Origin: Chloroflexota bacterium
Lineage (GTDB): Bacteria; Chloroflexota; Anaerolineae; Anaerolineales; UBA11858
Reading direction: 5' to 3'
DNA length: 64,000 nt
Assembly (NCBI GenBank): GCA_043818215.1
Contig: JBDRGC010000127.1
Coordinates: forward strand, 12,832-76,831
Shown here: piece after piece, positions 11,248 to 58,183 of the stretch
Numbering within the stretch: position 1 is the stretch's first letter
Layout of the letters: every line of letters starts with the position of its first letter
Made by a program: the position numbers and the translations under genes
The notes under the pieces: generated by a model
The model's database searches: none
Seen by the model: only the letters and a program-made list of their open reading frames with translations
What the model was told of the DNA's origin: nothing

Positions 11248-11249
11248 AT

Positions 11250-11540: not shown

Positions 11541-11604
11541 ATCTTCTCTGTTCTGACCTTGTCATATTTCTCGCTGATACGACTAATGCAAGTTTATCTT
11601 TATT

Positions 11605-11811: not shown

Positions 11812-11835
11812 ATCCCAATTATACCCCACTTGATT

Positions 11836-17433: not shown

Positions 17434-17447
17434 GGTATACTTGAAGC

Positions 17448-19328: not shown

Positions 19329-19342
19329 AGTCGAATAACCTT

Positions 19343-19711: not shown

Positions 19712-19725
19712 GGTATACTTGAACC

Positions 19726-20088: not shown

Positions 20089-20479
20089 CCCCACTGATTG
20101 GCTTTATTTTGCTCGTGAAGATCTTCGTGTGGCAGAATTGACGCTATCGAATGAGATTTACAACCAGGTATGTTTCCACTCTCAACAATGTTGTGAGAAG
20201 GCTCTCAAAGCCTGGCTTGCTCATCAAGGTATTGAATCGCCGAGAAAACATCAATTGAGTGTGCTATTGGCCCTTTCGACGATTGATATTTTTGCAGAGT
20301 TAGGTGGGGATATCGTTCGTCTTGATCGTTTTTACATTCCCACTCGCTATCCTGACGTGCTGGCAGGTTCACTTCCTGAGGGACTTCCAAATAAAGCAAA
20401 TGCCGAGGAAGCTATTGATACTGCTCGCAAAGTTCTCCACCGCGTCGAACAACATATTTCCACCCAACCCTCCCGTTGA
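20081..20479 (+). CDS. HEPN-domain toxin (copy B, diverged)
   Basis: FAREDLRVAE...FHSQQCCEKALKA and IPTRYPD motifs. The last ~19 residues are nearly identical to copy A. Confidence 0.75.
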   Translation: MGSPTDWLYFAREDLRVAELTLSNEIYNQVCFHSQQCCEKALKAWLAHQGIESPRKHQLSVLLALSTIDIFAELGGDIVRLDRFYIPTRYPDVLAGSLPEGLPNKANAEEAIDTARKVLHRVEQHISTQPSR

Positions 20480-21405: not shown

Positions 21406-21588
21406 ATCAGGAAACCAGGAAACCAGGAATCAGTAGATCAGGATGCCAGGGAAGACTGATTTACTGATCTACTGATCTACTGATCTACTGATCTACTGAT
21501 TTACTGATCTACTGATTTACTGATCTACTGATCTACTGATTTACTGATTTACTGATCTACTGATCTACTGATCTACTGATCTACTAAC
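21376..21588. repeat. octamer arrays with inverted arms (CAGTAAAT/CAGGAAAC then CTACTGAT/TTACTGAT x~18)
   Basis: Read directly. It spans the stop of the upstream CDS and ends 3 nt before the next ATG. Confidence 0.9.
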
Positions 21589-21591
21589 CTC

Positions 21592-28051: not shown

Positions 28052-28172
28052 GGATTAGGAACCAGGAAACCAGGAAACCAGGAAATCAGGAAACCAGGAA
28101 ACCAGGAAATACCGCCCCCTGGTCTACTGATTCCTGATTTACTGATCTACTGATCTACTGTTCTACTGATAC
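28049..28172. repeat. octamer arrays with inverted arms (CAGGAAAC then CTACTGAT)
   Basis: Read directly, between the sulfotransferase and oxidoreductase genes. Confidence 0.9.
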
Positions 28173-28179
28173 CTATACT

Positions 28180-30981: not shown

Positions 30982-31375
30982 GGTATCCTTTTCCGGTGAG
31001 ATTTTGAGTAGAATGTCTCACATTATATAGCATTGAAGGATACCTGTCATCTGGTATTGCGTTGGCTATACGGGAAAGATTTGTAGCGCGATTTTGGAAA
31101 ATCGCTCAGGCAGCGAAAACTGCTATAATTGCACCTTCGTCGGCAGCTTTTACACCACTGTCATAACCGCATCTAGCGCCTCATCGCTATTTGTAAACCA
31201 ACAAGAAAACTACTCAGCCTGCTCAGGTTCGGCAGTTGGAAACTGCACCAACGAAGATCACAAAGCTGACCGGAGCCTGCACAGAGCTTGTCGAAGTGTC
31301 GGCTAGGAGTCCACGAAGGTGGACTTCGTGCATTTCGTTGCTGCGACTTAAGTCGCCCCGACATGGGCCAAGTAG

Positions 31376-33127
<1,752 letters not shown>

Positions 33128-33198: not shown

Positions 33199-34251
33199 AT
33201 GCCCGATTTACCTCGACTTTTCGATCTGACAGACCGCGTTGCCATCGTCACCGGCGCCGCCGGCCTGTTGGGAACTGAATTCTGCCGCACACTGGCCGAG
33301 GCTGGGGCGGCGGTTACGATTGCGGATATGGATGGGGACTCTGCCGCTGATGTGGCGGATACCCTCACCCGAGGCGGATTCCGCGCCCTGGGGCTTAAAA
33401 CCGACGTGACCGCGCCGGATTCCGTTACCCGAATGGTGGCTGCTACCCTGGGGGCATTTGGGCGTCTCGACATCCTGGTTAACTCCGCCGCTCTCGATCC
33501 CAAGGTCAGGGAGCAGGAAGCAGGAAACCAGGAATCAGGAAACCAGGGATTAGGGACTAGGGATCAGGGACTAGGGACTAGGGATCAGGGATCAGGAAAC
33601 CAGGGATCAGGAAACCAGGGATCAGGAAACCAGGGATCAGGAAACCAGGGATCAGGAAACCAGGGATCAGGAAACCAGGGATCAGGAAATCAGGGATCAG
33701 GGACTAGGAATCAGGAACCGGGAGAATCCCTAACCCCTAACCCCCTAACCCCTAACCCCTTGTCCCTCACCTTCGAAGACTACCCCCTCGAACTCTGGCA
33801 GCAAGCTCTGGACGTCAACCTGACGGGGGCTATGCTATGCTGTCAAGCCGCCGTGCGGCCCATGTTGGAACAGGGCCGCGGGGTCATCATCAACATCGCT
33901 TCCATCTACGGCCTCGCCGCCCCCGACCAGCGACTCTATCAGCGTGAAGGGCAGTTCCCGCAGTACAAGCCCGCCTATTACACCGTCACCAAAGCCGGCG
34001 TGCTCGGTCTCACCAAATATCTGGCGGCCTATTATGCTGGCAAGAATATCCGCGTCAATGCCCTGACTCCCGGCGGCGTCTACAACGGCCACGATGACGA
34101 GTTCGTCAAAGCCTACTCCGCCCGCGCCGTCATGGGCCGCATGGCCGAAAAAGACGAGATGAACGGCGCCCTCCTCTTCCTGGCCTCCGAGGCCTCCAAA
34201 TACATGACCGGCGCTAATCTCATCGTCGATGGGGGCTGGACAGCGTGGTGA
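33199..34251 (+). CDS. SDR-family oxidoreductase carrying an ~85-aa array-encoded insertion
   Basis: TGAAGLLG, NSAA and YxxxK (YTVTK) motifs. The insertion (GSGNQ)n lies right after the NSAA strand. ATG at 33199. Confidence 0.75.
   Translation: MPDLPRLFDLTDRVAIVTGAAGLLGTEFCRTLAEAGAAVTIADMDGDSAADVADTLTRGGFRALGLKTDVTAPDSVTRMVAATLGAFGRLDILVNSAALDPKVREQEAGNQESGNQGLGTRDQGLGTRDQGSGNQGSGNQGSGNQGSGNQGSGNQGSGNQGSGNQGSGTRNQEPGESLTPNPLTPNPLSLTFEDYPLELWQQALDVNLTGAMLCCQAAVRPMLEQGRGVIINIASIYGLAAPDQRLYQREGQFPQYKPAYYTVTKAGVLGLTKYLAAYYAGKNIRVNALTPGGVYNGHDDEFVKAYSARAVMGRMAEKDEMNGALLFLASEASKYMTGANLIVDGGWTAW
33506..33762. repeat. in-CDS arrays: CAGGAAAC/TAGGGAC words, a 15-nt (7+8) unit CAGGGATCAGGAAAC x~8, then CCTAACC
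   Basis: Read directly. The 15-nt composite period keeps the frame and gives (GSGNQ)n. Confidence 0.9.
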
Positions 34252-35852: not shown

Positions 35853-35982
35853 GGTTGAGAAAATCACAATATTAACATCCAATCTCCAATCTCCAGTCCC
35901 CAATCTCCAATTACCAGGTTCTGGTCCTCATCCCTGCCCGCGGCGGCTGGACGATGTAGTGAGGCAGAATGCATCGGGGAAC

Positions 35983-36327
35983 ATGAATATGAAGCTTCGC
36001 GATCTCGTCAATCGAGTTAGTATCGACCCTCGCAAACTAACAGAATACGCGTTACACCCCGATCACCCAAGAGGTGGTCACAAAGCGCGTGTATTTGAGG
36101 CGGCACTGGGATATAATCAAAGCAACTATCAATCCCTGCTTGACCAAATCGCGGATGAAGCCCTGGAATCTGAAGTGATACCAGGACAGGTTGATCAATT
36201 TGGGCAACGGGTCTGTGTTGGTTTGGAAGTTACAGGTGTGGAAGGCCAACGAGTGATTGTGCTAAGTGTTTGGATGATAGTGTCGCATGGTAGCGAAGCT
36301 CGTCTGGCCACATTGTATCCAAAGTGA
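35983..36327 (+). CDS. DUF6883-like protein
   Basis: 114 aa from the ATG at 35983. The KLTEYALHPDHPRGGHKARVFEAALG pattern is recalled for DUF6883. Confidence 0.5.
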   Translation: MNMKLRDLVNRVSIDPRKLTEYALHPDHPRGGHKARVFEAALGYNQSNYQSLLDQIADEALESEVIPGQVDQFGQRVCVGLEVTGVEGQRVIVLSVWMIVSHGSEARLATLYPK

Positions 36328-36336
36328 GAAGAGCTT

Positions 36337-36690
36337 ATGTCCGATCCAGAACTTTTTGATGTAATAGAATTACTCACAGATGTGCCTGAACAAAACCTGC
36401 GCGCAGGTACTCAGGGTACCATTGTGCATCAATATTCCGATGAAATTTTTGAAATCGAGTTCACCAACACTGAGGGAGAGACGTTGGCCTTGTGTGCGCT
36501 TCCATTTCGGCAGTTTATTGTCGTCTGGCAATCGGAGTATCAACGATGGGTACCAGTCGTTGAGCAACTTGTCCAAATAGTTGCTCGCTTGCCAGAAAAA
36601 GCTGGGACAGAAGTGCTCGACTTTGCACGATTTATCAGCGTTCGCACTGAACACCGTCACCCCACCCGCGTAGAACGTGTAGCTGCATAG
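36337..36690 (+). CDS. DUF4926-like protein
   Basis: FDVIELLTDVPEQNLRAGTQGTIVHQY..EIFEIEF is the pattern recalled for DUF4926. It is paired with the upstream gene. Confidence 0.5.
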   Translation: MSDPELFDVIELLTDVPEQNLRAGTQGTIVHQYSDEIFEIEFTNTEGETLALCALPFRQFIVVWQSEYQRWVPVVEQLVQIVARLPEKAGTEVLDFARFISVRTEHRHPTRVERVAA

Positions 36691-37065
36691 ATCCCTTATC
36701 CCTGGTAGTCCCCAAGATTGGCGGAGCATCCGGTACCAATCACGCGTACAGATAGCCAACGTGATAATATTATCCAATTGGCAGATTTTGTAGCCGGGGC
36801 AACCTACCAAAAACACATCCGAGGCAATTGTGTGTACACAGACCTTTTCGCCGAACGAGTGGTAGTGGAACGCACCATCCAATGGCACCCAAAATAAAAA
36901 AGGACAGGGATCCCGAGGGGCGTTTTAACCTGATCTTGTGTCAGGTGGGCCACGGTAATCGCGACCCCGCCGCACTCAGCCTTACTCCCTGTCATTGCTT
37001 ATAGTCTACTACAAAATAAGACAGAGGCAAACAGCAAAAGGGGTGAGAAAATCACAACATTAACA

Positions 37066-37190
37066 TCCAATCTCCAATCTCTAATCTCTAATCTCCAATC
37101 TCCAATCCCCAACCTCCCATGTACAATCCCCAATCCCCAATCTCCAATCTCCATTCTCCAATCTCCATTCTCCATTCTCCAATCTCCAAT
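37066..37190. repeat. heptamer array (CCAATCT and variants, ~17 units)
   Basis: Read directly. It contains the only in-frame ATG (37119) of the NeuA-like ORF. Confidence 0.9.
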
Positions 37191-37931
37191 TACCAGGTTC
37201 TGGCCCTCATCCCCGCCCGCGGCGGATCGAAATCCATCCCCCGCAAGAATATCATCGACTTTGCCGGCCACCCGCTGATCGCTTACAGTATCGCCGCAGG
37301 ACTGGCCGCCGAGACTGTGACGCGGGTGATCGTCTCCACCGATGACGATGAGATCGCCGCCATCTCCCGCCGCTGCGGGGCCGAGACTCCCTTTCTGCGT
37401 CCTGCGGAACACTCTCTCGACAACACCCCCGACCTGCCCGTCTTCCGGCAGGCCCTGGAATGGCTGGCCGACAACGAAGGCTACTGCCCGGACATCGTCG
37501 TCCAACTGCGGCCCACTTCCCCTTTCCGTCGCGTTTGGCATATCGACCAGGCTGTCTTGCGGCTCATCGAGCACCCCGAAGCCGACGCGGTGCGCACCGT
37601 CTGTGTGCCCTTCCAGAACCCCTTCAAAATGTGGCGCATCGCCCCCGACGGGTTAATGCAGCCCCTCGGAACCGAGCTGGGCATCCCCCGCGAGCCATAC
37701 AACCAGCCCCGGCAAGCCCTCCCCGAAGTCTACTGGCAGACCGGCTACGTCGATGCTGCCTGGGCCGACACCATTCTCTCGAAGAATTCCATGACCGGGG
37801 ACGCAATCCTACCCCTGGTCATCGACCCCTCCGAATGGGTGGACATCGACTCTCCCAATGATTGGCGCAGGGCGGAGAGACTGTTGGAGAGCGGGGAGGT
37901 TACTTTGGATGATCTAGGTTTTTCTATTTAG
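37119..37931 (+). CDS. acylneuraminate cytidylyltransferase family (NeuA/LegF/PseF-like CMP-nonulosonate synthetase)
   Basis: LIPARGGSKSIPRKNI N-terminal motif and the CTP_transf_3 layout. The first ~25 codons are array-encoded, so the true start is uncertain. Confidence 0.8.
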   Translation: MYNPQSPISNLHSPISILHSPISNYQVLALIPARGGSKSIPRKNIIDFAGHPLIAYSIAAGLAAETVTRVIVSTDDDEIAAISRRCGAETPFLRPAEHSLDNTPDLPVFRQALEWLADNEGYCPDIVVQLRPTSPFRRVWHIDQAVLRLIEHPEADAVRTVCVPFQNPFKMWRIAPDGLMQPLGTELGIPREPYNQPRQALPEVYWQTGYVDAAWADTILSKNSMTGDAILPLVIDPSEWVDIDSPNDWRRAERLLESGEVTLDDLGFSI

Positions 37932-38322
37932 GAATCAGTAGGTCAGTAGATCAGTAGATCAGTAAATCAGGGATCAGTAGATCAGTAAATTAGTAAATCA
38001 GTAGATCAGTAAATCAGGAATCAGTGGATCAGGGAGCAGTAGATCAGGAATATAATCAGGGTTTCCTGATTTCCTGATTTCCTGGTTTCCGGATTTCCTG
38101 ATTTACTGATTTCCTGATTTACTGATTTACTGATTTCCTGATTTCCTGATTTCCTGGTTTCCTGATTTCCTGATTTCCTGGTTTCCTGATTTCCTGGTTT
38201 CCTGGTTTCCTGGTTTCCTGATTTCCTGGTTTCCTGGTTTCCTGATTTCCTGGTTTCCTGGTTTCCTGGTTTCCTGATTTCCTGGTTTCCTGGTTTCCTG
38301 GTTTCCTAGTTTCCTAGTTTCT
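37931..38322. repeat. largest array in the window (~390 bp): CAGTAGAT/CAGTAAAT arm then TTTCCTGA/TTTCCTGG arm
   Basis: About 48 octamer units can be read directly, with an orientation switch near 38055. It generates the spurious ORF 38127..38411. Confidence 0.9.
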
Positions 38323-39043: not shown

Positions 39044-39076
39044 ATAATCAATATGGGTGAGTTGGGGTTTTCTATT

Positions 39077-39262
39077 GGGGACTGGTAAATTGGGGAGTGG
39101 TAAATTGGTAAATTGGGGATTGGTAAATTGGTAAACTGGGGACTGGTGATTGGTTCCCAGCTTACCAACCTACCAATCTACCAATCTACCAACCTACCAA
39201 CCTACCAATCTACCAATCTACCAATCTACCAATCTACCAACCTACCACTCCCCAATTCCCAA
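39077..39262. repeat. octamer arrays with inverted arms (TGGTAAAT/TGGGGACT then CCAATCTA/CCAACCTA)
   Basis: Read directly, ending 5 nt before the kinase ATG. Confidence 0.9.
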
Positions 39263-39267
39263 AAACC

Positions 39268-40674
39268 ATGTTCACTTCCCTCCGCTCCCGCCTGTTGTTG
39301 ACTTATGCCCTTGTCATCGGGGTGGTGCTGTGCGTGGCAGGGACTGCGCTGATCTGGTACATTTTGCAGAATCCCGCCATCGAACGGCTATTGTACGTGC
39401 GTCTCGATCAGGCTGCGGAAAATGTTCTCCAGCAAGAGATGCCCGCTTTATCTTCGTCGCAGACATTACAAGCAACCGCCCGGCGTATCGACCAGCAATA
39501 TAATGTGCGTGTTTTGGTGCTGTCGGTTGATGGGGAAGTGTTGACCGACTCTCGGAGCGGGGACGAGCCAGAGTTGGCTCCCAAAACACGTCGCATCACA
39601 CAAGGAACGCATGGACTGGCCTGGGACGCCAACAACCGGGCCTGGTTATTCGTGTGGCAGCCACTCGATGATGACACTTTTCTGGTTTTGGCTGTGCCGC
39701 GTGTCAGAAAAGTATCTCTCCTTTTCTCCCAGCGTTTACGAGAAGTATTGCGGGATGATCTATTTCCGCCCCTGCTTCAAGCTGGCTGTGCGGCCTTGAT
39801 TTTAGCGCTGATCCTGGCTTTGTGGATGTCGCGCTGGGTGGCGGCCCCTTTGCGGCGCATGGCTGCAGCAACGCGGGACATGTCAGCGGGGGAATATGGT
39901 CACATTTCGGTAGAAGGGCCAGAAGAAGTACAGTCCCTGGCGCACGCCTTCAACGAGATGACAGCCCGGGTGCAAGCCAGCCAGCAATCCCAGAGAGACT
40001 TTGTGTCCAATGTCTCCCACGAGTTGAAAACGCCACTTACATCCATTCAGGGCTTCTCACAAGCCATGTTAGACGGCACTGCGGATACCCCGGAGAAATT
40101 GCAGCAATCTGCTGAGGTGATTTTTAGCGAGGCCGGGCGGATGCACCGCATGGTTTTAGACCTTTTGGATTTAGCCCGCCTGGATGCCGGGACGGTGGAA
40201 TTGGAGCGTGTTAGCGTGGACCTGGCAGCTTTGCTGCACAATGTGACCACCAGGCTCTCCCCGCAGGCCGCACAGGCTCAGGTGGATTTGCAGTTCGAGA
40301 GCTTTGCACTTCCGATTGTGATCGGCGATGGGGACCGCCTGACCCAGGTTTTTACAAATCTGGTGGAAAACGCCCTCAAGTATACGCCTCCGGGCGGGCA
40401 GGTGCGGCTCCGAGCGGCAGCGGCGGCAGACTGCGTGGAAATCTCGGTGGAGGACACGGGGCCGGGCATCCCCCCGGAACACTTGGGACGCATTTTCGAG
40501 CGATTCTATCAAGTGGACAAATCCCGCCCCGGTGGGGGCCGCCGCGGAGTTGGATTGGGGTTGCCCATTGCGCGGGAGATTATCCAAGCCCACGGAGGCA
40601 CAATCACAGCCCACAGCCAGACGGGACAGGGAAGTGTTTTTGTGGTAAAAATACCCCTTGCACGCCCCGAATGA
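39268..40674 (+). CDS. sensor histidine kinase (2 TM, HAMP, HisKA, HATPase_c)
   Basis: H-box SHELKTPLTSI, N-box NLVENALKYTP, G1 DTGPGI, G2 GVGLGL. No response regulator is adjacent. Confidence 0.85.
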   Translation: MFTSLRSRLLLTYALVIGVVLCVAGTALIWYILQNPAIERLLYVRLDQAAENVLQQEMPALSSSQTLQATARRIDQQYNVRVLVLSVDGEVLTDSRSGDEPELAPKTRRITQGTHGLAWDANNRAWLFVWQPLDDDTFLVLAVPRVRKVSLLFSQRLREVLRDDLFPPLLQAGCAALILALILALWMSRWVAAPLRRMAAATRDMSAGEYGHISVEGPEEVQSLAHAFNEMTARVQASQQSQRDFVSNVSHELKTPLTSIQGFSQAMLDGTADTPEKLQQSAEVIFSEAGRMHRMVLDLLDLARLDAGTVELERVSVDLAALLHNVTTRLSPQAAQAQVDLQFESFALPIVIGDGDRLTQVFTNLVENALKYTPPGGQVRLRAAAAADCVEISVEDTGPGIPPEHLGRIFERFYQVDKSRPGGGRRGVGLGLPIAREIIQAHGGTITAHSQTGQGSVFVVKIPLARPE

Positions 40675-40683
40675 ATTCGGTGT

Positions 40684-40790
40684 CTCGCCATTCGCCATTC
40701 GCCACTCGCCACTCGCCATTCGCCATTCGCCACTCGCCATTCGCCATTCGCCCCTCGCTATTCGCTATTCGCCACTCGCCACTCGCCCCC
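40684..40790. repeat. heptamer array (CATTCGC/CACTCGC, ~15 units)
   Basis: Read directly. It extends the ORF-track ORF 40658..41809 upstream of the real start. Confidence 0.9.
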
Positions 40791-40813
40791 ACGCTTCACT
40801 CCTCACGTACATA

Positions 40814-46586: not shown

Positions 46587-46593
46587 TAAGGTA

Positions 46594-46845
46594 GTTGCTC
46601 AAAATGTTAGTGGTGGATTGCATCCCAAAGGAAGCGTACCCACCAACAAAACCGAATTGTAAATGGTAAATGGTGAATTATAAATGGTAAATGATTGTGG
46701 CGCTGTCTGCACTTCATTTACAATTTACCATTCACCAGTTACCATTTATAATTTCATTCCCCCCTGCATAATTCAAATGACGCACTTTGGGGGGCAAAAA
46801 AGCATTTATGGGGATAACTTGAATAGACCGAACTGCAATATCATG
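46594..46845 (+). repeat. 252-bp dispersed repeat, copy A (contains a TAAATGG inverted heptamer hairpin)
   Basis: Near-identical to 48222-48473 in direct orientation. Confidence 0.9.
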
Positions 46846-48195: not shown

Positions 48196-48221
48196 AACGT
48201 GGTGCTACACATTTTCACGTT

Positions 48222-48473
48222 GTTGCTCAAAATGTTAGTGATGCATTGCATCCCAAAGGATGCGTACCCACCAACAAAACCGAATGGTAAATGGTAAATG
48301 GTGAATTATAAATGGTAAATGATTGTGGCGCTGTCCGCACTTCATTTACAATTTTCCATTCACCATTTTCCATTTATAATTTCATTCCCCCTTCATAATT
48401 CAAATGACGCCCTTTGGGGGGTAAAAAAGGCATTTATGGGAATAACTTGAATAACCCGAACTGCAATATTATG
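48222..48473 (+). repeat. 252-bp dispersed repeat, copy B
   Basis: Near-identical to 46594-46845. It abuts a truncated trmO-like fragment. Confidence 0.9.
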
Positions 48474-48608
48474 GTGCTCGATGTAGACGAGGAACACGGC
48501 ATCGTTATGCTGCCCTGGATAGATGCTCTCGATGGCACACCCGTTCTCGATCTGAAGCCTTACATACCAATCTCAGATCGCATTCATGATTACAAGGTTG
48601 CAGCATGA
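48474..48608 (+). pseudogene. 3' fragment of a TrmO/YaeB (TsaA-like) methyltransferase gene
   Basis: LDALDGTPVLDLKPYIP is the conserved C-terminal motif of TsaA/TrmO. The N-terminal ~100 residues are missing, and the apparent N-terminus of ORF 48414.. is repeat-derived. Confidence 0.5.
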
Positions 48609-48734
48609 CTTGAAGAGTGGCCCGAATGGATGGAAGATGCCGCTGAACATTTTACCAAGCACGAAGTTGATTTTGGGGAGTGAGTCTATAAAGCGGTATT
48701 GCGATAAAAACAATCTTGCAAAAGGGAGCCCGCG

Positions 48735-50534
48735 ATGAGCAAATCATCTTCTCTGCACATTTTTGGGCGGACAATTCCGATGTGGGTTGTGGCGTTGGCG
48801 TTTGTCATATTGGGGCTGATGGCTTACTCGCCTTATCTGGGTTCTGGCTTCTCCGGTGATGATTTCATCTTCGTCAATATGCTGGAAGGTGCCATTCCTT
48901 ACGACCCGGTGATGGGTTTCTGGTTCGGCGACATAGACTCCTACCCAGGTTTTACGATGCAGTGGTGGTTCGAACCAGGCGTGGCAGGGTCTTTCCTGCG
49001 CCCGTTGGCAAGCTGGACGCTGACCCTGCTGTACCAAACCTTTGGCCGCAACGCGGTTCCCTTTCATATCACACTGGTGATGGTACATGCGCTGGGAGCT
49101 TTTACCGCCTGCCTCGTGCTGCGGCGATTATCGGGCCGTGACGCGCCCGCGCTGCTGGCTGCGCTGCTGTTTCTCATCTGCGAAGACCACGCCATGACTG
49201 TGGCCTGGATCGCCACCATCACCGACCTGCTATGCGCGCTGTTCCTGAATTTGGCCTTTCTGTGTCACATCACTGCCCGGCAGGAGCGCAAACCCTGGCT
49301 GATTGCCCTGAGCCTGGTTTTCTTCCTGGGGGCGATCACTTCCAAAGAGACGGCTGCCATCTACCCCTTGATTATCGCCGCTTACGAGTTCTTCTTCGCC
49401 GAGCACTTGAGCAGCGACCGCGAACAAGTCAGTTTGATCGCCCGCGTCAGGCTGTTTTTCCGGCATTGGTGGGCCTGGGCGATTCCCCTGACCGCTGTCG
49501 CCGCTTATATGACCTTCTACCTCAACCTCGTCCCGCCAATGCGCAGCCTGATGTACGTGGATCCCTTCAGCCAGCCGGGCCGTTACCTGATTATGATGCT
49601 GACCAACCTGCCGGTGATGTTCGTAGCTCTGTTGACGCAATTCCTGCCTTCGATTGTGGTCATGCTCCCCAAGACGCTGCCCTTCGTGGCGGGGCCCGGA
49701 GTGATCTTGACCGGCCTGCTGCTTTGGGCGTTGCTTCCCTACCGGCGGGAACGCGCCGTCTGGTTTGCACTGCTCGTCTTCGTGTTGGGCCTGCTCCCGG
49801 GCCTGGCGACCGAACCCGGCGAGCGGCTGCTCTACTTCCCCAGCATGTACGGGCTTTTCCTCGTGATCTGGCTCATCGTGCAGATTCCCATCTTGCGGCC
49901 GCGATTCGCGCCCGATGCCCCGCCCGGCGTGCGGCGGCTTGGCGCGGCGTGGGGCTGGTACCTGGCGGCTTCTGCGCTGATCCTGCCGGTCATCCTGCTG
50001 TTCGTCTCCCCCTCGATGTGGATTCCTGGCCTGCAATGGCCTGAACAGACAATGCTCGACAGCCTGCCGATTATCGACGCCGGCGAGTACGAGCATATCG
50101 TCTACCTGAACACCGACTCATCCTACAATTCCTTCTATCTGCCCGATATCTACCGCTACCACCGCGGCGAGTACATCGACCTGCGGCTGCTTTCGAGCTT
50201 CAACGGGCACGTGTGGGCCAGGCAGGCATCGGATCATGCCATCGTACTCAAGAGCGAGGATACCGGCTGGTTGAGCAATATGTTCGCCCGGCTCACGCGC
50301 CTCACGCCGGAGTTCGCTGTGGGCGACGAGTACACCACGTCGCTGTTCACGGCCACCATTTTAGCTGTAACGCCAGACAGGCAGGATGTGCAAGAAGTGC
50401 GCTTCGAGTTTACACTCCCCCTGGACGATCCGTCGATTGTGCTGCTGTTCTACGATGGGGAAAACTATCTCCGCTGGGAGCTATCGACGGAGTGGGAGCT
50501 GCTCAACCCGAGGTTGGATCCGTTTGCGTTCTAA
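48735..50534 (+). CDS. polytopic membrane protein, GT-C-like glycosyltransferase/polymerase candidate with soluble C-terminal domain
   Basis: 599 aa with about 12 TM segments. The early loop motif is SGDDFIFVNMLEG. No precise family recognised. Confidence 0.45.
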   Translation: MSKSSSLHIFGRTIPMWVVALAFVILGLMAYSPYLGSGFSGDDFIFVNMLEGAIPYDPVMGFWFGDIDSYPGFTMQWWFEPGVAGSFLRPLASWTLTLLYQTFGRNAVPFHITLVMVHALGAFTACLVLRRLSGRDAPALLAALLFLICEDHAMTVAWIATITDLLCALFLNLAFLCHITARQERKPWLIALSLVFFLGAITSKETAAIYPLIIAAYEFFFAEHLSSDREQVSLIARVRLFFRHWWAWAIPLTAVAAYMTFYLNLVPPMRSLMYVDPFSQPGRYLIMMLTNLPVMFVALLTQFLPSIVVMLPKTLPFVAGPGVILTGLLLWALLPYRRERAVWFALLVFVLGLLPGLATEPGERLLYFPSMYGLFLVIWLIVQIPILRPRFAPDAPPGVRRLGAAWGWYLAASALILPVILLFVSPSMWIPGLQWPEQTMLDSLPIIDAGEYEHIVYLNTDSSYNSFYLPDIYRYHRGEYIDLRLLSSFNGHVWARQASDHAIVLKSEDTGWLSNMFARLTRLTPEFAVGDEYTTSLFTATILAVTPDRQDVQEVRFEFTLPLDDPSIVLLFYDGENYLRWELSTEWELLNPRLDPFAF

Positions 50535-50560
50535 CCTTATTTCTACCGTACATCTGTGAA

Positions 50561-50613
50561 AATAGAACGCGGACACTTGCGCCTGCGGTAGGTACAAGTG
50601 TCCGCGTTCTATT
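50561..50613. terminator. perfect 19-bp stem / 15-nt loop hairpin just after the membrane-protein stop
   Basis: aatagaacgcggacacttg ... caagtgtccgcgttctatt. No T-tract follows, so terminator function is inferred only. Confidence 0.45.
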
Positions 50614-50792
50614 GAAAGGGGAAGCAAATATCGGGAAGGCGGAGGGGGAGATGAAAAGTTTGAAGTTCATTATGAATCGCAACGATTGGCTTCCGTCATC
50701 AAGCAAACCTTAAATTATTGTTTCTGCCTTGACTTAGAACATGTGTGCGTGTATTATTGAGAACAGAACGGGCGTTCTAATTATGGCTCTAT

Positions 50793-51269
50793 TTGAAGGT
50801 AAATTATATGAACAGATTATTCTCTGGCTCAACGCATGTAGATATTCAAGGAAAACAGGTATTAATATTCCACAGCCTTAATGCAGAGGTTGCAGAATAC
50901 GCAGTAATTGGCTTCGAAAACTATCCTGTGCAAATCCTTGACTACCGGGACTTTGGGTTAGCTGCAATCAACTCCCTTTTGGCGACCAACAGATTTCACG
51001 ATTTCGCTCCAAAGTTCAATCATCCTGCACATACGACCATTGTTAAATCAGAGCAGGGAAAGATACAAATTGAGCTTAGGAATACAGATGAACAGAACCC
51101 ATCTCACATGCTTAGGATTGCAATTGGTATTAAGGAAGCAACTATCCCCGAATATACTTTTTTGCTAAAAGAACTTCAACCATTTAAGAACAAAGTTGCT
51201 TTACTTTCTATATATGAACGTCCTTTTCCAAACGAATTTCCTGCTTACTACCCTTCTTGTGATACGTAA
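50793..51269 (+). CDS. hypothetical protein (within insertion)
   Basis: A 158-aa AT-rich ORF with no recognisable motifs. Confidence 0.3.
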   Translation: MKVNYMNRLFSGSTHVDIQGKQVLIFHSLNAEVAEYAVIGFENYPVQILDYRDFGLAAINSLLATNRFHDFAPKFNHPAHTTIVKSEQGKIQIELRNTDEQNPSHMLRIAIGIKEATIPEYTFLLKELQPFKNKVALLSIYERPFPNEFPAYYPSCDT

Positions 51270-51340
51270 TTTTCCACTTCTGTACACTCAATGTCATTGA
51301 GCGAAGAAAAAGGGTACGGTGCGACAAAAAGAGAGCATCC

Positions 51341-52282
51341 ATGAGCAACAACCATCGAGTCTATCGCAGCATCCGAAATGCCACCAAGCAATTCTATCCA
51401 AATAAACCCGAATGGAATTTGGCTCGCCAATCGAACCCGTTGGCGGAGTTGGCAACAGTGATCGCTCAAAGCAATCGCAGACAATTGCCTGCGATTGCCT
51501 GGAAGTTTCCTGTTAGCACCAAGCCGGAGAGCCAGGTGACGAAATATTGCTGCCGTATACAGAACGAGCTGACTGATTTGGAAATCCACTATTTGCCCTT
51601 TGTCAGAGAATTTCTGGCTGCGCTGGCCGATATTCGCACGTTGGTCTTGGTGATGGATGATCGTGAAGTGGGGCACAATTGTCCGGCTCTGATGCTCAGC
51701 GTGGTTTACAAAGGTCGAACTTTGCCTATTGCGTGGATCGTTGCCAAAGGCAGCCACGGTAATTATCCTGCCGCAAATCATGCCGCCTTAGTCCATAAAG
51801 CCCACCAACTTATCCCCGCAGGAGCAGATGTCATTTTCTTAGATGATATGGACTTGGACAGCACTCCCCTGCAAACCACGATCAAGGCGTATGGATGGGC
51901 TTATGTCTGCCGCGCGGCAGAGGACGTCATCCTTCAAGAAGATGGGGTAGAGTTCTCGTTCAAAGACCTTATGGTCACTCCCGGAGATTGCCTCAGTCTG
52001 CCGCAAGTATTGCTCGCTCAACAAGGTTATAGGCCAGTCCATGCGATTGCCCGGTGGCAAAAAGGCTGCCAAGAACCACTCTATTTGATCACCAATTTAG
52101 AATTGGCAGAAGAAGCTTGTTACTGGTATGCCAGGCGGCTCCGAATCGAAACCTTTTTTTCTGATGAAAAAAGCCGTGGATTTCACATTCACAAGAGCCA
52201 TCTTTCTGACCCAGATCGATTAGCCCACCTAATGATAGCCGCTTGTTTAACCTACATTTGGATCATTTACCTGGGCGTTTAG
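51341..52282 (+). CDS. IS4/IS5-superfamily DDE transposase (possibly truncated)
   Basis: Acidic residues occur in LVMDDRE and IFLDDMD contexts, and the Y-x2-R-x3-E-x6-K signature (YARRLRIETFFSDEK) is typical of DDE_Tnp_1. The ORF ends soon after it. No terminal inverted repeats were found. Confidence 0.6.
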   Translation: MSNNHRVYRSIRNATKQFYPNKPEWNLARQSNPLAELATVIAQSNRRQLPAIAWKFPVSTKPESQVTKYCCRIQNELTDLEIHYLPFVREFLAALADIRTLVLVMDDREVGHNCPALMLSVVYKGRTLPIAWIVAKGSHGNYPAANHAALVHKAHQLIPAGADVIFLDDMDLDSTPLQTTIKAYGWAYVCRAAEDVILQEDGVEFSFKDLMVTPGDCLSLPQVLLAQQGYRPVHAIARWQKGCQEPLYLITNLELAEEACYWYARRLRIETFFSDEKSRGFHIHKSHLSDPDRLAHLMIAACLTYIWIIYLGV

Positions 52283-52641
52283 GAATGAGAATTAAATAAC
52301 TTACCCATTCAAGCAATCACGGTAGCGCCGGTTGAGTAGCGCAGGCACATGCTTTTCGTGCCGTAGCGTATACCTATGCAGGTATACCGTCCCGGTATCT
52401 AGGGACTGCGCACCTGCACTGCATGTGGCGCAAGTGTCGAAACCCAGCGGATTACAGGAAACTAGCCCATTTTCAAGCCCCGTTTGGTTTCTGGACGATC
52501 CATCGATTGTGTTGCTGTTCTACGATGGGGAAAACTATCTCCGTTGGGAGCCATCGACGGAGTGGGAACTGCTCAACCCGAGGCTGTATCCATTTGCGGT
52601 CTAAACCCCGGTGCATGCAAGGATGAAGTGATATTCATTTC

Positions 52642-55600
52642 TCAAGCTATGGGCCATTCGGTTATCACTGCATCTATCTCGGCCATCAGGCGGATGGTTT
52701 CGCGCAAAGCTTTGACAATACACCCATAATGGCGCACGTCGTCGAAGGTGAGGGCGCGCTGGGCTTTTTTGCGATCTTTGAGCCATTTATCGAGTACCTG
52801 GTAGCCGCCGATCTGGAATTCCCACACTTGTGGCTCGATGCCAGCGAAGTACTGCTGGTTGTTGATGTAGACGCGGCCTTGCTCCAAGTGAGTATCGCTG
52901 CCGGGAGCGGGTTCACCTGGAGCGTAGTAACGCGGGTAACGGCTGACCGTCAAATCTGAGCCGGAGACTGGGTAGCTGACGCCAGTTTTACGTAGGGACT
53001 CGGATTCCATCAGGTGCAGAGCGACCAATTGCCCGCCTTTTTCGGCCAGGGTGCGGAAGAGGGCCACATCACTTGTCAGGGGCAGACGGGGGAAATCAAT
53101 CTTTAGAAATTCAGCGTAGCGTTCGCGGAAGGTGGGCGAGTGGAAGACGGCGTAGGCGTAGTCGAAGATGTCTTCAGGGCCGAAGTTTTCTTGCAGGTCG
53201 CCGCGGCCGTTAGGGGTGAAGGCTAAACTCAGTTTATCTTTCGTATAGGCCAGGAACTTTCGTGAGAGATTAGGACAGCGGGTTTTGTATGGTTCCTGTT
53301 CTTCAAACAGACTCAAAATGAACGGCATGCTGCCCCCGCTGCTGAGAGTTTCTATCTTTTTTCTCGTGTTGTTATAGAGATAGAGGGGAAATAGAACAGG
53401 AGTTCCTCGATTACTAAAAAACGTTCTGTTATCAGCAATTACATTCGTAGCAATAAAGTGATTATGTGGAGGACCAACTACTTGTCGTATGGTTAATAAT
53501 GCCATGTTATTGTGCAACATGTGCTGAGATACATCCATTCTTGGGCGGTCGACAAAACCAACAGAATAAAAAATTGATCTAATGTCAAAAGGACGATAGA
53601 GATATTGACTGAAATGTTCGTCCCAGCCAGTTTGATTTTGAAAACTATCCCGTGCCTCGGATAACTTCCAATCTCGAGTGTCATTCAGTTCAAAGCGATC
53701 TTTAATTATCTCATCAGAAAATTTCTCATCGCGAAATATTTTGATTCTTTCTCGTAATGCGTCTTCGTCAAAATCAATCACAAAATGATCCCTGTGAGTT
53801 TTGACACCGCTGGAATGCACAGGGAAAATATCGGTCACGCTCCAGCCGCGCTGGTATTCATCGTACAAGTTAAAATCTTTGGGCACGAAGAAGTAGTGCG
53901 GGGCTTGGGGGGTTAGTTCTTCCCAGTCGGTAGTGCTGAGGTCGTGGGTGTTGAGGGCGTTGTATTTATCAGCGCGGCGGCCCCACAGGTCAGCGTAGTA
54001 GACATCTGCCAAGACCTCCGAGGTTTCCGAGACCTCGGAGGTCTTACCTTGGGGCAACTTCACCGCCAAAATAATCCCCACGCCCTGACGAATGTCGAAT
54101 ACGTTTTCGTCTTTGCTGCCGTCGGAAGCGGTTTCTCCCATCAGGGCATTGCCGTGCAGGTTGAGCAGGTAAATCTCATCGAAGGTTTTCATCAATTCCT
54201 GGCGCATGCCGCGGTGAATCAGCCCGGAGAGATAGGAGTGATTGGTGATCATCCCCACCAGCCCGTAGCCAGTCTGTTCGATGCGCTCGTGAGCAAAACG
54301 TAAAAACTTGATGTAATCATCCGAAAGGGGCTGGATATTGCGCTCATCGCGCACGGCCTTTTTGTAACGCTTCATCAACTGCTCGATGTATTCTCCCTTG
54401 TTGGCCGAACTGACCGAGTAAGGCGGGTTGCCCAGTACAACCATAATGGGCTTATCTCCCTTGATTTCAGCGGCTGCGTTGGCTTCCTCGGTAATATAAC
54501 GCGCAAAGGGGGCAACCTCCTCTTGAAAAATAGGTTTGCCCAAAGTGTTGGTCAGGTAAACACCCAACCGCTGTTTTCCAGCAAATTGATAGCCTAATTT
54601 TTGAAGCTGAATCCCCAACTTCATATGCGCCACCGCGTAGGGAGCCATGAGCAACTCGAAACCAAAGATGCGCGGCAAAAGCTGGTTTTTAGCGTAATCG
54701 TCCCACATCCCGGCCAGCCCCATAACTTCCAGCGACTCGTAAACGCGCTGGATCACGAAATACAAAAAGGTAGCCGTACCCACCGCTGGGTCGAGGATTA
54801 GGGTGTCCCGGTCGGCCAGTCCATCGGGTCGGCCAAAGCGTGTTTTAAGCAAATAATCCAGCGAGCGCACGATATACGAAACCACTGGCTCCGGAGTGTA
54901 ATACACACCGCGTGCCTGACGCATTCGCGGGTCGTAGGCAGCCAAAAAAGTCTCGTAGAAATGCACCACCGGGTCTTCCTGGCGGGTGCTTTTGCCGAAA
55001 TCACGCAGAACTGCGTCCATATCGGCGTTAGCCAGCAGATGGGCAATATCATCTACCAACCAGGCGATGCTGTCATCCAAGTCTGGCCCGGCAATTTCGT
55101 TGAATAGCTTACGCAAGAAAGGATTGGTTTTGGGGAGATTCCAGGCCGCTTCGCGACGGGTGAATTCCTGAGGAGCGGGTACTCGCACCCGCGCGGCGAA
55201 CAACCCATAGGTGATGGTTTGGGCGTACATATCGGCGAACTGGGCCACATCTAGGTCAGGTATCAGCGTTTCACGGAAGACGTTCATTTGAGCGTGAAGC
55301 GCACCCGATGCGCTCTCCTGCTCGAAGGCTTCGGAGAGCAGTTCGCGTAACATACGCGCCAGACCAGCCATCCGCCGCGCCAGTTCCTGCGGGTCGCCAA
55401 TGACCGGGGTCTGTTGGGTCAAAAACCGGTTGAGTAGGTTGGCGGTTTGCTGTATGCCCCCTGGTTCGGTACGAATTTGATGGTCTCTGGTCAACCTGCC
55501 CAGCTGGACTGTCTCCCGCAGATCGCCGTTTACATACCAATGGAATTCCAAGTAATCAGTCAGTATGAGATTGTTGAGCGAAGTCCGATAACGGGTTATT

Positions 55601-55863
55601 TGCTCATCATTTTCCAGCGCGTGCAGATTCGCCCCAATATCTTTGGCCTCCACGTAACCAATCGGTGTTTGCCCGCGCAATATGCAATAATCAGGCGCGC
55701 CACAAGCCACACGTTTGGGTTCGTTTATAGCCTGGATATCATCGGCGAAGCTTTCCAGCAAAACCGACAAAGCTGGGCGGTGGGTGTGCTCAGTAGCATC
55801 GCCGGTATCGAGTTTCTGGCGCAATGATTTTAGATATTCCTTGAGCATAGTATTATCAGTCAT
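52642..55863 (-). CDS. single-polypeptide type IIG (type IIL-like) restriction-modification enzyme: N-terminal PD-ExK nuclease, gamma-class N6-adenine methyltransferase, C-terminal specificity domain
   Basis: GAPDY-x12-VEAKD near the N-terminus, motif I LDPAVGTATFL, motif IV GNPPY and a long C-terminal region conserved in type ISP/IIG enzymes (FDYAYAVFHSP..., GGYQVLDKWLKDR). Confidence 0.7.
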   Translation of the reverse strand: MTDNTMLKEYLKSLRQKLDTGDATEHTHRPALSVLLESFADDIQAINEPKRVACGAPDYCILRGQTPIGYVEAKDIGANLHALENDEQITRYRTSLNNLILTDYLEFHWYVNGDLRETVQLGRLTRDHQIRTEPGGIQQTANLLNRFLTQQTPVIGDPQELARRMAGLARMLRELLSEAFEQESASGALHAQMNVFRETLIPDLDVAQFADMYAQTITYGLFAARVRVPAPQEFTRREAAWNLPKTNPFLRKLFNEIAGPDLDDSIAWLVDDIAHLLANADMDAVLRDFGKSTRQEDPVVHFYETFLAAYDPRMRQARGVYYTPEPVVSYIVRSLDYLLKTRFGRPDGLADRDTLILDPAVGTATFLYFVIQRVYESLEVMGLAGMWDDYAKNQLLPRIFGFELLMAPYAVAHMKLGIQLQKLGYQFAGKQRLGVYLTNTLGKPIFQEEVAPFARYITEEANAAAEIKGDKPIMVVLGNPPYSVSSANKGEYIEQLMKRYKKAVRDERNIQPLSDDYIKFLRFAHERIEQTGYGLVGMITNHSYLSGLIHRGMRQELMKTFDEIYLLNLHGNALMGETASDGSKDENVFDIRQGVGIILAVKLPQGKTSEVSETSEVLADVYYADLWGRRADKYNALNTHDLSTTDWEELTPQAPHYFFVPKDFNLYDEYQRGWSVTDIFPVHSSGVKTHRDHFVIDFDEDALRERIKIFRDEKFSDEIIKDRFELNDTRDWKLSEARDSFQNQTGWDEHFSQYLYRPFDIRSIFYSVGFVDRPRMDVSQHMLHNNMALLTIRQVVGPPHNHFIATNVIADNRTFFSNRGTPVLFPLYLYNNTRKKIETLSSGGSMPFILSLFEEQEPYKTRCPNLSRKFLAYTKDKLSLAFTPNGRGDLQENFGPEDIFDYAYAVFHSPTFRERYAEFLKIDFPRLPLTSDVALFRTLAEKGGQLVALHLMESESLRKTGVSYPVSGSDLTVSRYPRYYAPGEPAPGSDTHLEQGRVYINNQQYFAGIEPQVWEFQIGGYQVLDKWLKDRKKAQRALTFDDVRHYGCIVKALRETIRLMAEIDAVITEWPIA

Positions 55864-56950: not shown

Positions 56951-57910
56951 AGGCACCATATCTCTAAGTTCTTGTAGCCGTTCCTTGCCGATCAAATCCA
57001 GATATTCCTGGTGGTCAGCGACCTTGTGGATATACTTGTCAAGATAGGCTTGCGTATCCTCCACGGTTTTAGAGGCCTCCACCCAGGCTTTGATTTGGGC
57101 CTCGTCCCGCTCGTAGATATAACACATCTCGCCGGGGTGCGACCCGAAGGGGGCATGTATTACCGCGTCCACCAGGTAATAGGGAATCACGGTGCGATCG
57201 GGCTGCGAGCGGATAAAATCGGTGTCCACGATTTCCTCGGCGCTGATGATCAGCCGCTTGGAAGCCCGCGACATCTCGAATGCGAATCCGCTGATGCCGT
57301 CGATTTGGGCGTTGCCGTATTTATCGGCCCGGTGGACGTGGATCAATCCCACGTCGAGGATCAAGGCCGGCAGCAGTGCAATCGGGTCGCCAGTGAAAGG
57401 ACACTCGACTACCTTGGCGGCGCTGTATTTGAGGGTGTCGGTGCCCAGCATGGAGCGGACGGGGATGAAGGGCACGCCCATTGCGGCGGCCTTGAATCGC
57501 CAGGCAATCCCGGCGTTGCTCCAATCGACGCATTTGACGCGCCCGCTTTCCACCTCCCGCCGCAGGCAGTTGGAGATGCCGTAAACCTCCAATCCAATAT
57601 AGGTGTGGTCGAGTGCCTTGACCAGCCCGGCCCCCAGCAGGATGTCCAACTCGTAGACTCCCTGCCCGGCCACGCGCAGGTCTTTTTTCCCCTGGCGGAC
57701 GATCTCGTTGACCAGCGATTGCGGGCAGCGCACCGTGCCGTACAGTTCCGTGCCGATATAATCGCCATCGTGGACGAAGCGGCTGACGGCCTCGGCTTCG
57801 GTCATCATTTTGTCCACCAACCCCCTGGGCTTGTTGCGATTATGCTCGCGGAAGGCATTGACATCGGGCGGTTGAAGCATTTCGCCGATGCCGGATTGGA
57901 GTACTTTCAT
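56942..57910 (-). CDS. CoA-transferase subunit A
   Basis: EAVSRFVHDGDYIG...AGQGVYELD...VHVHRADKYGN is the pattern of family I CoA-transferase alpha subunits. ATG at 57910. Confidence 0.8.
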   Translation of the reverse strand: MKVLQSGIGEMLQPPDVNAFREHNRNKPRGLVDKMMTEAEAVSRFVHDGDYIGTELYGTVRCPQSLVNEIVRQGKKDLRVAGQGVYELDILLGAGLVKALDHTYIGLEVYGISNCLRREVESGRVKCVDWSNAGIAWRFKAAAMGVPFIPVRSMLGTDTLKYSAAKVVECPFTGDPIALLPALILDVGLIHVHRADKYGNAQIDGISGFAFEMSRASKRLIISAEEIVDTDFIRSQPDRTVIPYYLVDAVIHAPFGSHPGEMCYIYERDEAQIKAWVEASKTVEDTQAYLDKYIHKVADHQEYLDLIGKERLQELRDMVPEA

Positions 57911-57924
57911 GATCACGTCTCCTT

Positions 57925-57998
57925 GTTGGTAATTGGTAAATTGGTGATTGGTAGATTGGTAAATTGGTAATTGGTAAACTGGTGCTTGGTGGATTGGT
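57925..57998. repeat. octamer/heptamer array (TGGTAAAT/TGGTAATT/TGGTAGAT)
   Basis: Read directly, upstream (minus sense) of CoA-transferase A. Confidence 0.85.
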
Positions 57999-58183
57999 AT
58001 GCTCAGTATACTCCGCACGGTCAGTGTAAAGTCAATGTCATTAATTTTATCCATCGGCGGATTATAGCGCAGTATCCCCTTGCGGGATGAAACCGCCTGG
58101 AACATGTCAGAAAACCTTATTTTGCTCCTGTCGGATCCGTCCCTCAAGGGGATGCTGCGCGATGATCCGACAGACACCAACCC

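Follow-up and report, generated by a model that had tools for sequence, protein, structure and literature searches.

The 64-kb stretch of Chloroflexota DNA analysed here, referred to below as the window, is a surface-polysaccharide locus, and such loci are known for recombination. On its plus strand lies an intact gene (48735–50534) for a membrane glycosyltransferase of 599 aa, which by its homologs and domains is PMT_2 / GT39-like and of the GT-C type; the NCBI name of the product is glycosyltransferase family 39. We found 114 homologs, the full-length ones mostly 599–601 aa and most of them with a precomputed PF13231 domain. The last 37 codons of this gene and its stop (copy A, 50421–50534), which are functional, recur in the same orientation at 52491–52604 (copy B), where they form a relic of a glycosyltransferase 3' end that is truncated on its 5' side and non-functional. 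To the right, on the minus strand, is a Type ISP restriction-modification gene (52642–55863; PF18135, PF02384, PF07669), convergent with the glycosyltransferase gene. A gap of 37 nt separates its stop codon from copy B, and the gene flanks the region on the right in each of the four assemblies.

The two copies align over 114 nt without a gap, 105 positions being identical (92%; BLAST E about 1.7e-40), with a spacing of 2070 nt from copy A to copy B and a longest identical run of 31 nt. The left edge of the repeat is sharp, there being zero similarity 5' of CTGGACGAT, and on the right the repeat closes with the stop codon, TAA. The glycosyltransferase is full length, as its homologs are, and the repeat ends at its stop, which is the layout expected where an element brings a replacement 3' end. 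The DNA between the copies amounts to 1956 nt with a GC content of 45.9%, against 59.2% in the glycosyltransferase gene and 53.8% in the window. A reading made earlier from the sequence alone had described an AT-rich insertion bracketed by 114-nt direct repeats of a gene's 3' end, and that description stands. Its inventory of the enclosed DNA, namely a hypothetical gene, a DDE transposase gene and a hairpin-rich tail, needs amendment in two points: the IS4-family transposase ORF is truncated, and the 208-nt tail has a fold z of −1.3, no more structured than shuffled sequence. The hypothetical gene, of 153 aa, is real and belongs to a conserved family of small size. The strong hairpin lies at the opposite end of the insert, at 50561–50613.

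The transposase belongs to an IS4-family remnant (51270–52282, plus strand), whose ORF (51341–52282) is cut at its 3' end, encoding 313 aa as compared with about 365 in relatives; the alignment shows the last ~50 residues to be missing. It matches PF01609 (E 6e-8) and NF033591 (E 1e-30, below the NCBIfam cutoff), the match ending at model position 281 of 340, and a Y-2-R-3-E-6-K motif is present as judged by eye. Searching for terminal inverted repeats by way of relatives, as the sequence-only reading had advised, gave a left-end-like sequence at about 51275–51291, with 5 mismatches to the relatives' 17-mer, and no detectable right inverted repeat after 52282, so that only one of the two ends has a candidate. 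The IS copy on a sister-lineage contig (L057) retains its right end and occupies the same insertion site. We also considered the tail as the source of the missing right end, on the strength of CGGTAG and AACTTACCC noticed by eye; local alignments to the right ends of three relatives score no better than shuffles, and the idea was rejected.

An IS without the 3' end of its coding region and without a right inverted repeat cannot have moved the segment. Nor can the repeat be a target-site duplication. A relative of this IS (L049) makes a duplication of 9 bp, so the sequence-only reading was right that 114 nt is far too long for an IS4-type duplication; moreover the repeats do not abut the IS, copy A ending 740 nt before the left end and copy B lying 208 nt after the truncated ORF. 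What the locus has in common with an IS4-family insertion that made a target-site duplication is the IS4-family element enclosed by the repeats; the length of the repeats, their distance from the remnant and the lack of a right end all set the locus apart. Our conclusion is that the IS is a dead passenger, and that the 114-nt repeat was not made by it.

Between copy A and the 153-aa gene is a spacer (50535–50662) limited to this lineage, which folds with a z of −5.3. The hairpin mentioned above has 24-bp arms and is terminator-like when read on the minus strand. The spacer also holds an IS-end-like motif (50541–50557) whose core, CTACCGTACA at 50543–50552, is the 10-mer core of the IS-family inverted repeat; this core occurs once in the window, with 0.05 occurrences expected, and alignments were made as well. 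A 12-nt sequence, GGGGGAGATGAA, at 50644–50655 is common to the spacer and the sister-lineage contig L044. The 153-aa gene (50808–51269, plus strand) and its upstream region, together 50663–51269, include a predicted promoter-like site at 50729–50757. The protein has 11 homologs at 57–84% identity, mostly of 149–154 aa with two of 165–169 aa. It matches no family in Pfam, NCBIfam or PHROG, and no viral contig or other viral relative was matched, which led us to reject a phage origin for the gene.

Over about 62 nt the tail (52283–52490) resembles 18356–18421 (72–88% identity, E 1e-3), and at about 52366–52447 it carries a partial copy of a MITE-like element, of which a full copy with a terminal repeat pair (18366/18528) lies at 18366–18550. 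We rejected the tail as an RNA or structured element, since its Rfam matches are chance hairpins only, no tRNA was found in the 64-kb window and its fold is unremarkable.

The sequence-only reading took the enclosed DNA to be an incoming, IS-bearing import, and a recent import does not agree with what is found in the sister lineage (ENA ERZ27250555, JGI 3300028045). There the 153-aa gene and the IS are likewise paired, with the IS at the same site and 80% nucleotide identity. Between the two lineages the 153-aa gene has an omega of 0.30 and a dS of 0.28, similar to the dS of the glycosyltransferase gene (0.22). Given the shared insertion site and this divergence, the 153-aa gene and IS would form one old haplotype block with copy A; the pair is an old unit and not a recent IS-borne arrival. 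That the block also lies downstream of the glycosyltransferase gene in the sister lineage is a weak link, the left flank of L057 differing from the end of L044.

We turn now to the divergence of the two copies. Copy B differs from copy A at 9 positions, of which 6 are synonymous, and its C-terminus retains 34 of the 37 residues; copy A differs from the sister-lineage protein by a single change, P583L. Synonymous states specific to copy B are T at repeat positions 22 and 54, C at 94 and A at 102. The glycosyltransferase region is 92% identical in nucleotides to the sister-lineage contigs L006 and L044, this similarity being limited to 48722–50534. Comparing copies A and B gives dS 0.28, dN 0.036 and omega 0.13, while the dS of copy A against the sister lineage is 0.29 locally. 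As the synonymous distance between A and B is as large as that between A and the sister, copy B looks like the allele of a third lineage at a comparable distance. Two of the changes in copy B, D595Y and F599V, are radical and fall at family-conserved residues (D is invariant in the family at 595, and the closest homologs have F or Y at 599); they fit a short decay after truncation. The divergence, from few substitutions, may reflect an origin of the copies in two genomes. It suggests that what survives in copy B is the truncated end of a second allele that was once functional, and not a duplicate that arose in place and decayed; the two copies look like alleles on which purifying selection acted in each case until they were brought next to each other. 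Along the repeat the differences contain no clean switch point such as a single recent crossover would leave, which counts against the recombination reading given below. An attempt to root A, B and the sister copy (O) with deeper outgroups was abandoned, the outgroups being saturated and the signals in conflict (2 sites grouping A with B, 2 B with O and 1 A with O); the comparison of copy A, copy B and outgroup therefore uses unrooted branch lengths only.

The account we favour, with about as much belief as doubt, sees copy B as the final 114 nt, left stranded, of a second allele that was once functional, and as the scar of a recombination between haplotypes. A second allele of the glycosyltransferase gene would formerly have stood directly in front of the restriction-modification gene, this recipient haplotype reading '...TTTACACTCCCC' plus a B-type end joined directly to 'ACCCCGGTGCATGC'. 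A different haplotype would then have been joined to the resident gene 114 nt before its stop codon, bringing in order an intact gene, the hairpin spacer, the 153-aa gene, the already dead IS4 remnant and the tail. This would leave the gene intact on the upstream side, with a dead piece of a 3' end downstream of it. Two routes are the likeliest. In one, homologous exchange would have taken place in the gene or upstream of it and been coupled to an illegitimate joint at 52490|52491, the donor being a relative diverged by ~8%; in the other, a circular fragment with the 114-nt segment on it would have integrated by a single crossover, on the model of Rhs C-terminal displacement. Both the side that came in and the route used are what we infer. 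In agreement with a homologous anchor, the gene runs directly into the added block, which has a homologous relic of 114 nt at its far side, and published models of displacement, as described in PMC2935791 and PMC5361080, predict an intact gene followed by a displaced fragment.

The sequence-only reading had likewise proposed recombination, through a homologous segment carried by the incoming DNA. The involvement of homologous DNA is supported, both by the two copies, which look like separately evolved alleles, and by a second structure with the same signature at 17053–20586; the role of the 114-nt segment as the substrate is not. The segment may instead have survived from the resident gene on the far side of an illegitimate joint, or a deletion may have spared it from a second resident copy. 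The check it had suggested, a search for an empty-site allele, recovered none, whether by protein look-ups, among the genome contigs scanned or among the metagenome contigs scanned with a 13-sequence profile. The look-ups were exact-protein ones with the glycosyltransferase, the transposase and the restriction enzyme, and all these searches together led only to four assemblies of the same population and to contexts that are unrelated. Neither an empty site nor an alternative haplotype turned up that could stand as donor or recipient, which counts against the favoured account.

The deletion just mentioned is the strongest competitor, although we consider it unlikely. It would start from two resident full-length copies in the same orientation (paralogs or a xenolog), one followed by the 153-aa gene and IS and the other by the restriction gene, and a single deletion from the tail into the second copy would have left its last 114 nt. 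This accounts equally well for the mostly synonymous divergence between A and B and for the later radical changes in B, and the truncated IS and truncated MITE-like element in the tail attest that deletions did happen here. However, it requires the long-term upkeep of two copies 92% identical, and none of the ~40 related loci has a second copy or C-terminal segment nearby (the 153-aa gene, the IS and the restriction gene are also absent from all of them). One contig of a relative that seemed to carry tandem homologs proved to be two different contigs.

Improbable, in our view, is an in-place tandem duplication of the gene's 3' end, with insertions or deletions thereafter and neutral decay of copy B. 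The unrooted branch lengths (3 unique changes in copy A, 6 in copy B and 4 in the outgroup) would suit a duplication about halfway back to the sister split with B evolving faster, as would the two changes in B at conserved residues. Yet only 2 of the 6 changes on the copy B branch are non-synonymous, whereas 69–77% would be expected under neutrality (P 0.03–0.08), a synonymous excess not expected of a neutral fragment; the neutral in-place model is disfavoured at P 0.03–0.14, and the selection signal, from 9 substitutions, is borderline. The model also needs an insertion exactly at the tandem junction, or else the precise deletion of a second intervening copy, and the analogous gene-end fragments of the second structure (18198–18308 and 19331–19711) likewise differ from their intact copies mainly at synonymous sites, with omega 0.09–0.18.

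Integrative elements that target gene 3' ends keep the gene intact and leave attL/attR direct repeats, and the repeats might be read as such sites, flanking an integrase-driven island that supplied a replacement end and has since lost its integrase. The likeness is real, in that here too direct repeats of a 3' end, terminating at the stop codon, accompany an intact gene and an insert of lower GC. We nevertheless regard this explanation as very unlikely. No integrase or other recombinase gene was detected in the insert or among the window ORFs scanned; the core of the insert is shared with the sister lineage at host-gene divergence, which makes it old synteny rather than a recent island; it has no phage or PHROG relatives; and the repeats show 9 scattered differences and no defined identical core. 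An assembly artefact joining two strain haplotypes can hardly be credited. It is true that all sources are metagenome assemblies, and that contig L001 departs from the window at the place of a neighbouring repeat, 46591. Yet the structure is identical in three assemblies (two MAG contigs having no SNP across 48987–52773), the break of the fourth within copy B falls exactly on the 31-nt run that A and B have in common, no k-mer is shared across 52490|52491 that could cause a misjoin, and the copies differ at 9 positions.

It had also been noticed that both repeats, and a cassette at 35947, begin with CTGGACGAT. The observation is correct, the sequence occurring in the window at 50421, 52491 and 35947 and, on the minus strand, at 18252. 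A special role at junctions does not follow, as CTGGACGAT encodes family-conserved Leu-Asp-Asp codons and is found at the same place in unrelated homologs; its presence at the 35947 junction is possibly coincidence. In this polysaccharide locus the focal repeat can be counted among at least three structures in which cassettes of 1–2 kb, either IS remnants or toxin-antitoxin pairs, are bracketed by 0.1–1.3 kb direct repeats of neighbouring gene ends; the others lie at 17053–20586 and 35853–37218. As a further example we rejected the repeats on either side of the GHL15 gene (46591 and 48219): they are copies of a MITE-like family, present also in L001 and L044, and not host gene ends. It is conceivable, but improbable, that together the three structures record recurrent homology-guided integration in this Chloroflexota lineage, small circles with a piece of a flanking gene entering by single crossover. 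Were this true, Rhs C-terminal displacement would have a general counterpart that needs no integrase, and CTGGACGAT, shared by two breakpoints, might mark a preferred joint.

In Rhs C-terminal displacement, as described by Jackson et al. (2009, PMC2935791), a circle with a piece of the gene and intervening genes integrates by single crossover. The layout here is alike in having an intact gene and then a dissociated fragment that starts with homology to the gene's 3' end. In the Rhs loci of that account the displaced pieces have different toxin tips and immunity genes, and the arrays grow; here, in contrast, the displaced end has the same sequence, there is a single relic, and toxin and immunity genes are lacking. 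Type VI secretion effector displacement in Vibrio cholerae, which leaves orphan immunity genes (Kirchberger et al. 2017, PMC5361080), is similar in that a module arrives with its anchor in a conserved gene upstream and pushes the older 3' material downstream, where it survives as a relic, and differs in that the present locus is without an effector-immunity module and its relic is without evident function. Homology-facilitated illegitimate recombination (de Vries & Wackernagel 2002; Prudhomme et al. 2002), as summarised in PMC3240628 and PMC5361080, offers a homologous gene-body anchor, an illegitimate joint, the addition of extra DNA and the keeping of resident DNA beyond it; according to these summaries it was shown experimentally in transformable bacteria, whereas the present case concerns an uncultured Chloroflexota lineage.

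Set beside these systems, the structure opens no new mechanism and answers no long-standing question, and the 114-base copy is most likely a fairly ordinary genomic scar, the dead leftover of a second version of the gene. For annotation it serves as a caution that an IS between long repeats need not be the agent of the rearrangement. If the recombination reading is true, the locus records gene flow between relatives diverged by ~8% in an uncultured Chloroflexota population. Additive, one-sided recombination would then have left, at the border of a surface-glycan locus, relics of displaced gene ends that can be dated; discussion of this has so far centred on toxin loci, namely those of Rhs, contact-dependent inhibition and type VI secretion.

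The 3' end of a gene encoding a PMT_2/GT39-like membrane glycosyltransferase (599 aa, assigned by homology; 48735-50534) occurs twice in the window. Copy A (50421-50534), within the gene, and copy B (52491-52604), downstream of it, can be aligned gap-free along 114 nt and differ at 9 positions (92% identity; E ~1.7e-40 by BLAST against a near-identical contig), so the direct repeat described in the sequence-only reading, with about ten substitutions, is present and ends at the stop codon. On the left, similarity ceases abruptly at the 9-mer CTGGACGAT, upstream of which the copies share none; on the right, the edge is the TAA stop codon, and the longest run identical between the copies is 31 nt. 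The enclosed 1956 nt have a GC content of 45.9%, compared with 59.2% for the glycosyltransferase gene. An assembly artefact is unlikely, because three assemblies share the structure, without any SNP across 48987-52773, and a fourth contig stops, at 52514, exactly at the 31-nt run common to both copies. A 90-codon ORF with a TTG start (52332-52604) reads from the DNA preceding copy B in frame into it; Pfam and PHROGs contain no homologs of this ORF, it is not called as a gene in the MAGs, and if expressed it would yield a small protein ending in the C-terminal 37 residues of the glycosyltransferase.

Full-length members among the 114 homologs of the glycosyltransferase are mostly 599-601 aa, and thus the upstream gene copy is complete. 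The gene forms the right edge of a surface-polysaccharide locus that contains Wzm/Wzt transporter genes, NeuB, cytidylyltransferases, a sulfotransferase and several glycosyltransferases, with toxin-antitoxin pairs interspersed; no recombinase gene was detected among the window ORFs scanned. Its closest relatives, at 92% nucleotide identity, belong to a sister lineage, lineage O (contigs L006 and L044), and this similarity begins 13 nt ahead of the start codon and goes no further than the stop codon. A tRNA methyltransferase gene has left a relic just upstream of the glycosyltransferase gene: a 64-codon ORF (48414-48608) in which no more than the final ~30 positions of the TrmO_N domain are matched.

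The repeat is not a transposition footprint, because it is 114 nt long and does not touch the ends of the dead IS that it encloses; in a complete relative of this IS4-family element (contig L049), the inverted repeats are 19 nt long and the target duplication measures 9 bp. The earlier view of the repeat as a recombination scar, too long for a target duplication, is thereby upheld. Copy A is followed by a spacer seen only in the window's lineage (50535-50662). Eight nucleotides after the stop codon lies the 10-mer CTACCGTACA (found once in the window, 0.05 expected), which is the terminal-repeat core of the enclosed IS's family and agrees in every base with the inverted-repeat core of an IS4-family relative. 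The IS-end-like motif built on this core (50541-50557), with the IS remnant's own left end ~730 nt further downstream, may be the solo end of a second, lost IS copy. The spacer also contains a very stable hairpin (50561-50613; fold z -5.3). There follows a gene for a 153-aa protein (50808-51269) from a small conserved family of 11 proteins (57-84% identity, mostly 149-154 aa), for which no Pfam, NCBIfam, PHROG or viral relatives were found. Comparison with relatives places the left end of the IS at ~51275-51291, directly after the stop codon of the 153-aa gene, and reveals no detectable right inverted repeat after the transposase ORF (51341-52282), which is ~50 residues shorter than its relatives and whose match to the NCBIfam model ends at position 281 of 340. 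The remaining tail (52283-52490) had been called hairpin-rich; it shows neither an Rfam match nor significant structure, the strong hairpin being the one in the spacer. Within it, 43 nt before copy B, is a partial, diverged MITE-like copy (52366-52447). The full MITE-like element (18366-18550), with 23-nt terminal inverted repeats (ATACCTATGCAGGYACTGCGCAC), adjoins a truncated gene fragment (18198-18308), and thus both copies lie near breakpoints.

An IS is indeed enclosed, as first noted, but its arrival as a recent insertion is not borne out. Contig L057, recovered from the two samples in which the lineage-O glycosyltransferase gene was also found, is 80% identical to 50663-52171. In it, too, the 153-aa gene precedes the IS, which occupies an identical position, has an internal deletion of its own and keeps its right end. 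Between the window and L057 the 153-aa gene has a dS of 0.28 (omega 0.30), and between the window and lineage O the glycosyltransferase has a dS of 0.22 (omega 0.17), so the 153-aa gene and dead IS have been diverging for about as long as the glycosyltransferase. On these sequence comparisons, the 153-aa gene, the dead IS, as a passenger, and copy A would constitute one old haplotype block. Physical linkage of glycosyltransferase and block in lineage O is suggested by L044, which terminates 68 nt into a 177-nt MITE also present in L057, and by the 12-nt GGGGGAGATGAA, which closely precedes the MITE in L044 and, in the window, the point where homology to L057 starts (match score reached by 2 of 300 shuffles); the left flank of L057, however, differs from the L044 end. 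The 177-nt element (L057 70-246; terminal inverted repeats GTAACTACTTAGCC...GGCTGAGTAGTTAC) lies upstream of the 153-aa hypothetical gene in the sister lineage, and the window has an 84-91% identical relative (31240-31382) upstream of its ATP-sulfurylase/APS-kinase gene.

Six of the nine differences between the copies are synonymous, and the three replacements from A to B are L583P, D595Y and F599V. At position 583 the proline of B is typical of the family; D595 is invariant, the closest homologs have F or Y at 599, and B is altered at both of these positions. Taking lineage O as third taxon (deeper outgroups gave conflicting polarities and were left out), the branch lengths are 3 for A, 6 for B and 4 for O. 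Over the last 37 codons, dS and omega are 0.28 and 0.13 for A versus B, 0.29 and 0.04 for A versus O, and 0.41 and 0.06 for B versus O. Neutral decay since an in-place duplication would make 69-77% of changes non-synonymous, compared with two of six on the B branch (P 0.03-0.08; P 0.05-0.14 for all nine differences). This shortage suggests, though not decisively, that B evolved mostly within a functional gene, its truncation coming later.

A second structure supports a process common to both: direct repeats of 1256 nt (17053-18308 and 19331-20586) surround a 1022-nt insert comprising a 185-nt MITE-like element and a DUF433/DUF5615 pair, and their gene-end fragments likewise differ from the intact genes mainly at synonymous sites (omega 0.18 and 0.09). 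What is repeated comprises the 3' part of a DUF4910/M28 gene, one MNT and one HEPN gene, and a cytidylyltransferase gene up to codon 37; identity is 91-95% at the edges but drops to 71% (nucleotide) in the centre, where the MNT/HEPN alleles have diverged.

Other repeats occur in the window. At 35853-37218 the upstream region and first ~12 codons of CTP_transf_3 are repeated either side of a DUF6883-containing cassette (35947-37040), which opens with CTGGACGAT, as does copy B. This shared start, pointed out earlier, is real. CTGGACGAT occurs four times in the window (0.66 expected; four reached in 1 of 100 shuffles), two of these being the repeat copies themselves, where it encodes a family-conserved Leu-Asp-Asp; the identical 9-mer stands at the same gene position in four homologs (L005, L008, L027, L030). 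At 35947 it falls exactly on the breakpoint, with no similarity after it, and it is absent from other junctions. The sharing is probably coincidence. A ~255-nt repeat (46591-46845 and 48219-48473; 93-95% identical), starting GTWGTTGCTCAAAATGTTAGTG, flanks a GHL15 gene. The lineage-O glycosyltransferase has a related element, with terminal inverted repeats, on its downstream side (L044 11880-12030), and the family also occurs at 2743-3325 of L001, a MAG contig. To the left of 46601, precisely at this repeat, L001 no longer follows the window; a strain rearrangement or a chimeric contig could account for this. CopG-antitoxin-type modules form a tandem pair at 10685-11813 (564-nt period, 75-78% identity). 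Many intergenic spacers hold 7-8-nt tandem-repeat arrays, such as ACTGATYT, GCGAGTCR, CCAATCT and GGAAACCA (15024-15199, 21404-21627, 28034-28178, 33499-33716, 37063-37209, 38014-38320, 39052-39272, 40663-40809, 57903-58021), often in both orientations across a gene boundary; they recall the TAACTGA repeats reported between genes of Beggiatoaceae (PMC4679880).

The scar is most simply explained by the joining of two haplotypes at 52490|52491. One, common to lineage O, would have carried the gene, spacer, 153-aa gene and IS, and the other the gene followed directly by a convergent Type ISP restriction-modification gene. The joint could have arisen by homologous exchange in or upstream of the gene together with illegitimate joining 114 nt ahead of the resident stop codon, or by a single crossover that integrated a circle bearing the 114-nt segment. 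Both routes would give the layout, either haplotype may have been the incoming side, and the 114-nt segment is at most a candidate for the sequence that actually recombined. It is also possible that a deletion between two resident gene copies made the layout. Under the joining of two haplotypes, the first route would be homology-facilitated illegitimate recombination (reviewed in PMC3240628), which has been invoked for similar relics (PMC5361080). The second corresponds to the displacement model for Rhs C-termini, in which a circle integrates by single crossover and fragments are seen behind the intact gene as direct repeats (PMC2935791); the likeness is the direct-repeat fragment downstream of an intact gene. 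The scar is a fresh example of an already known type of relic.
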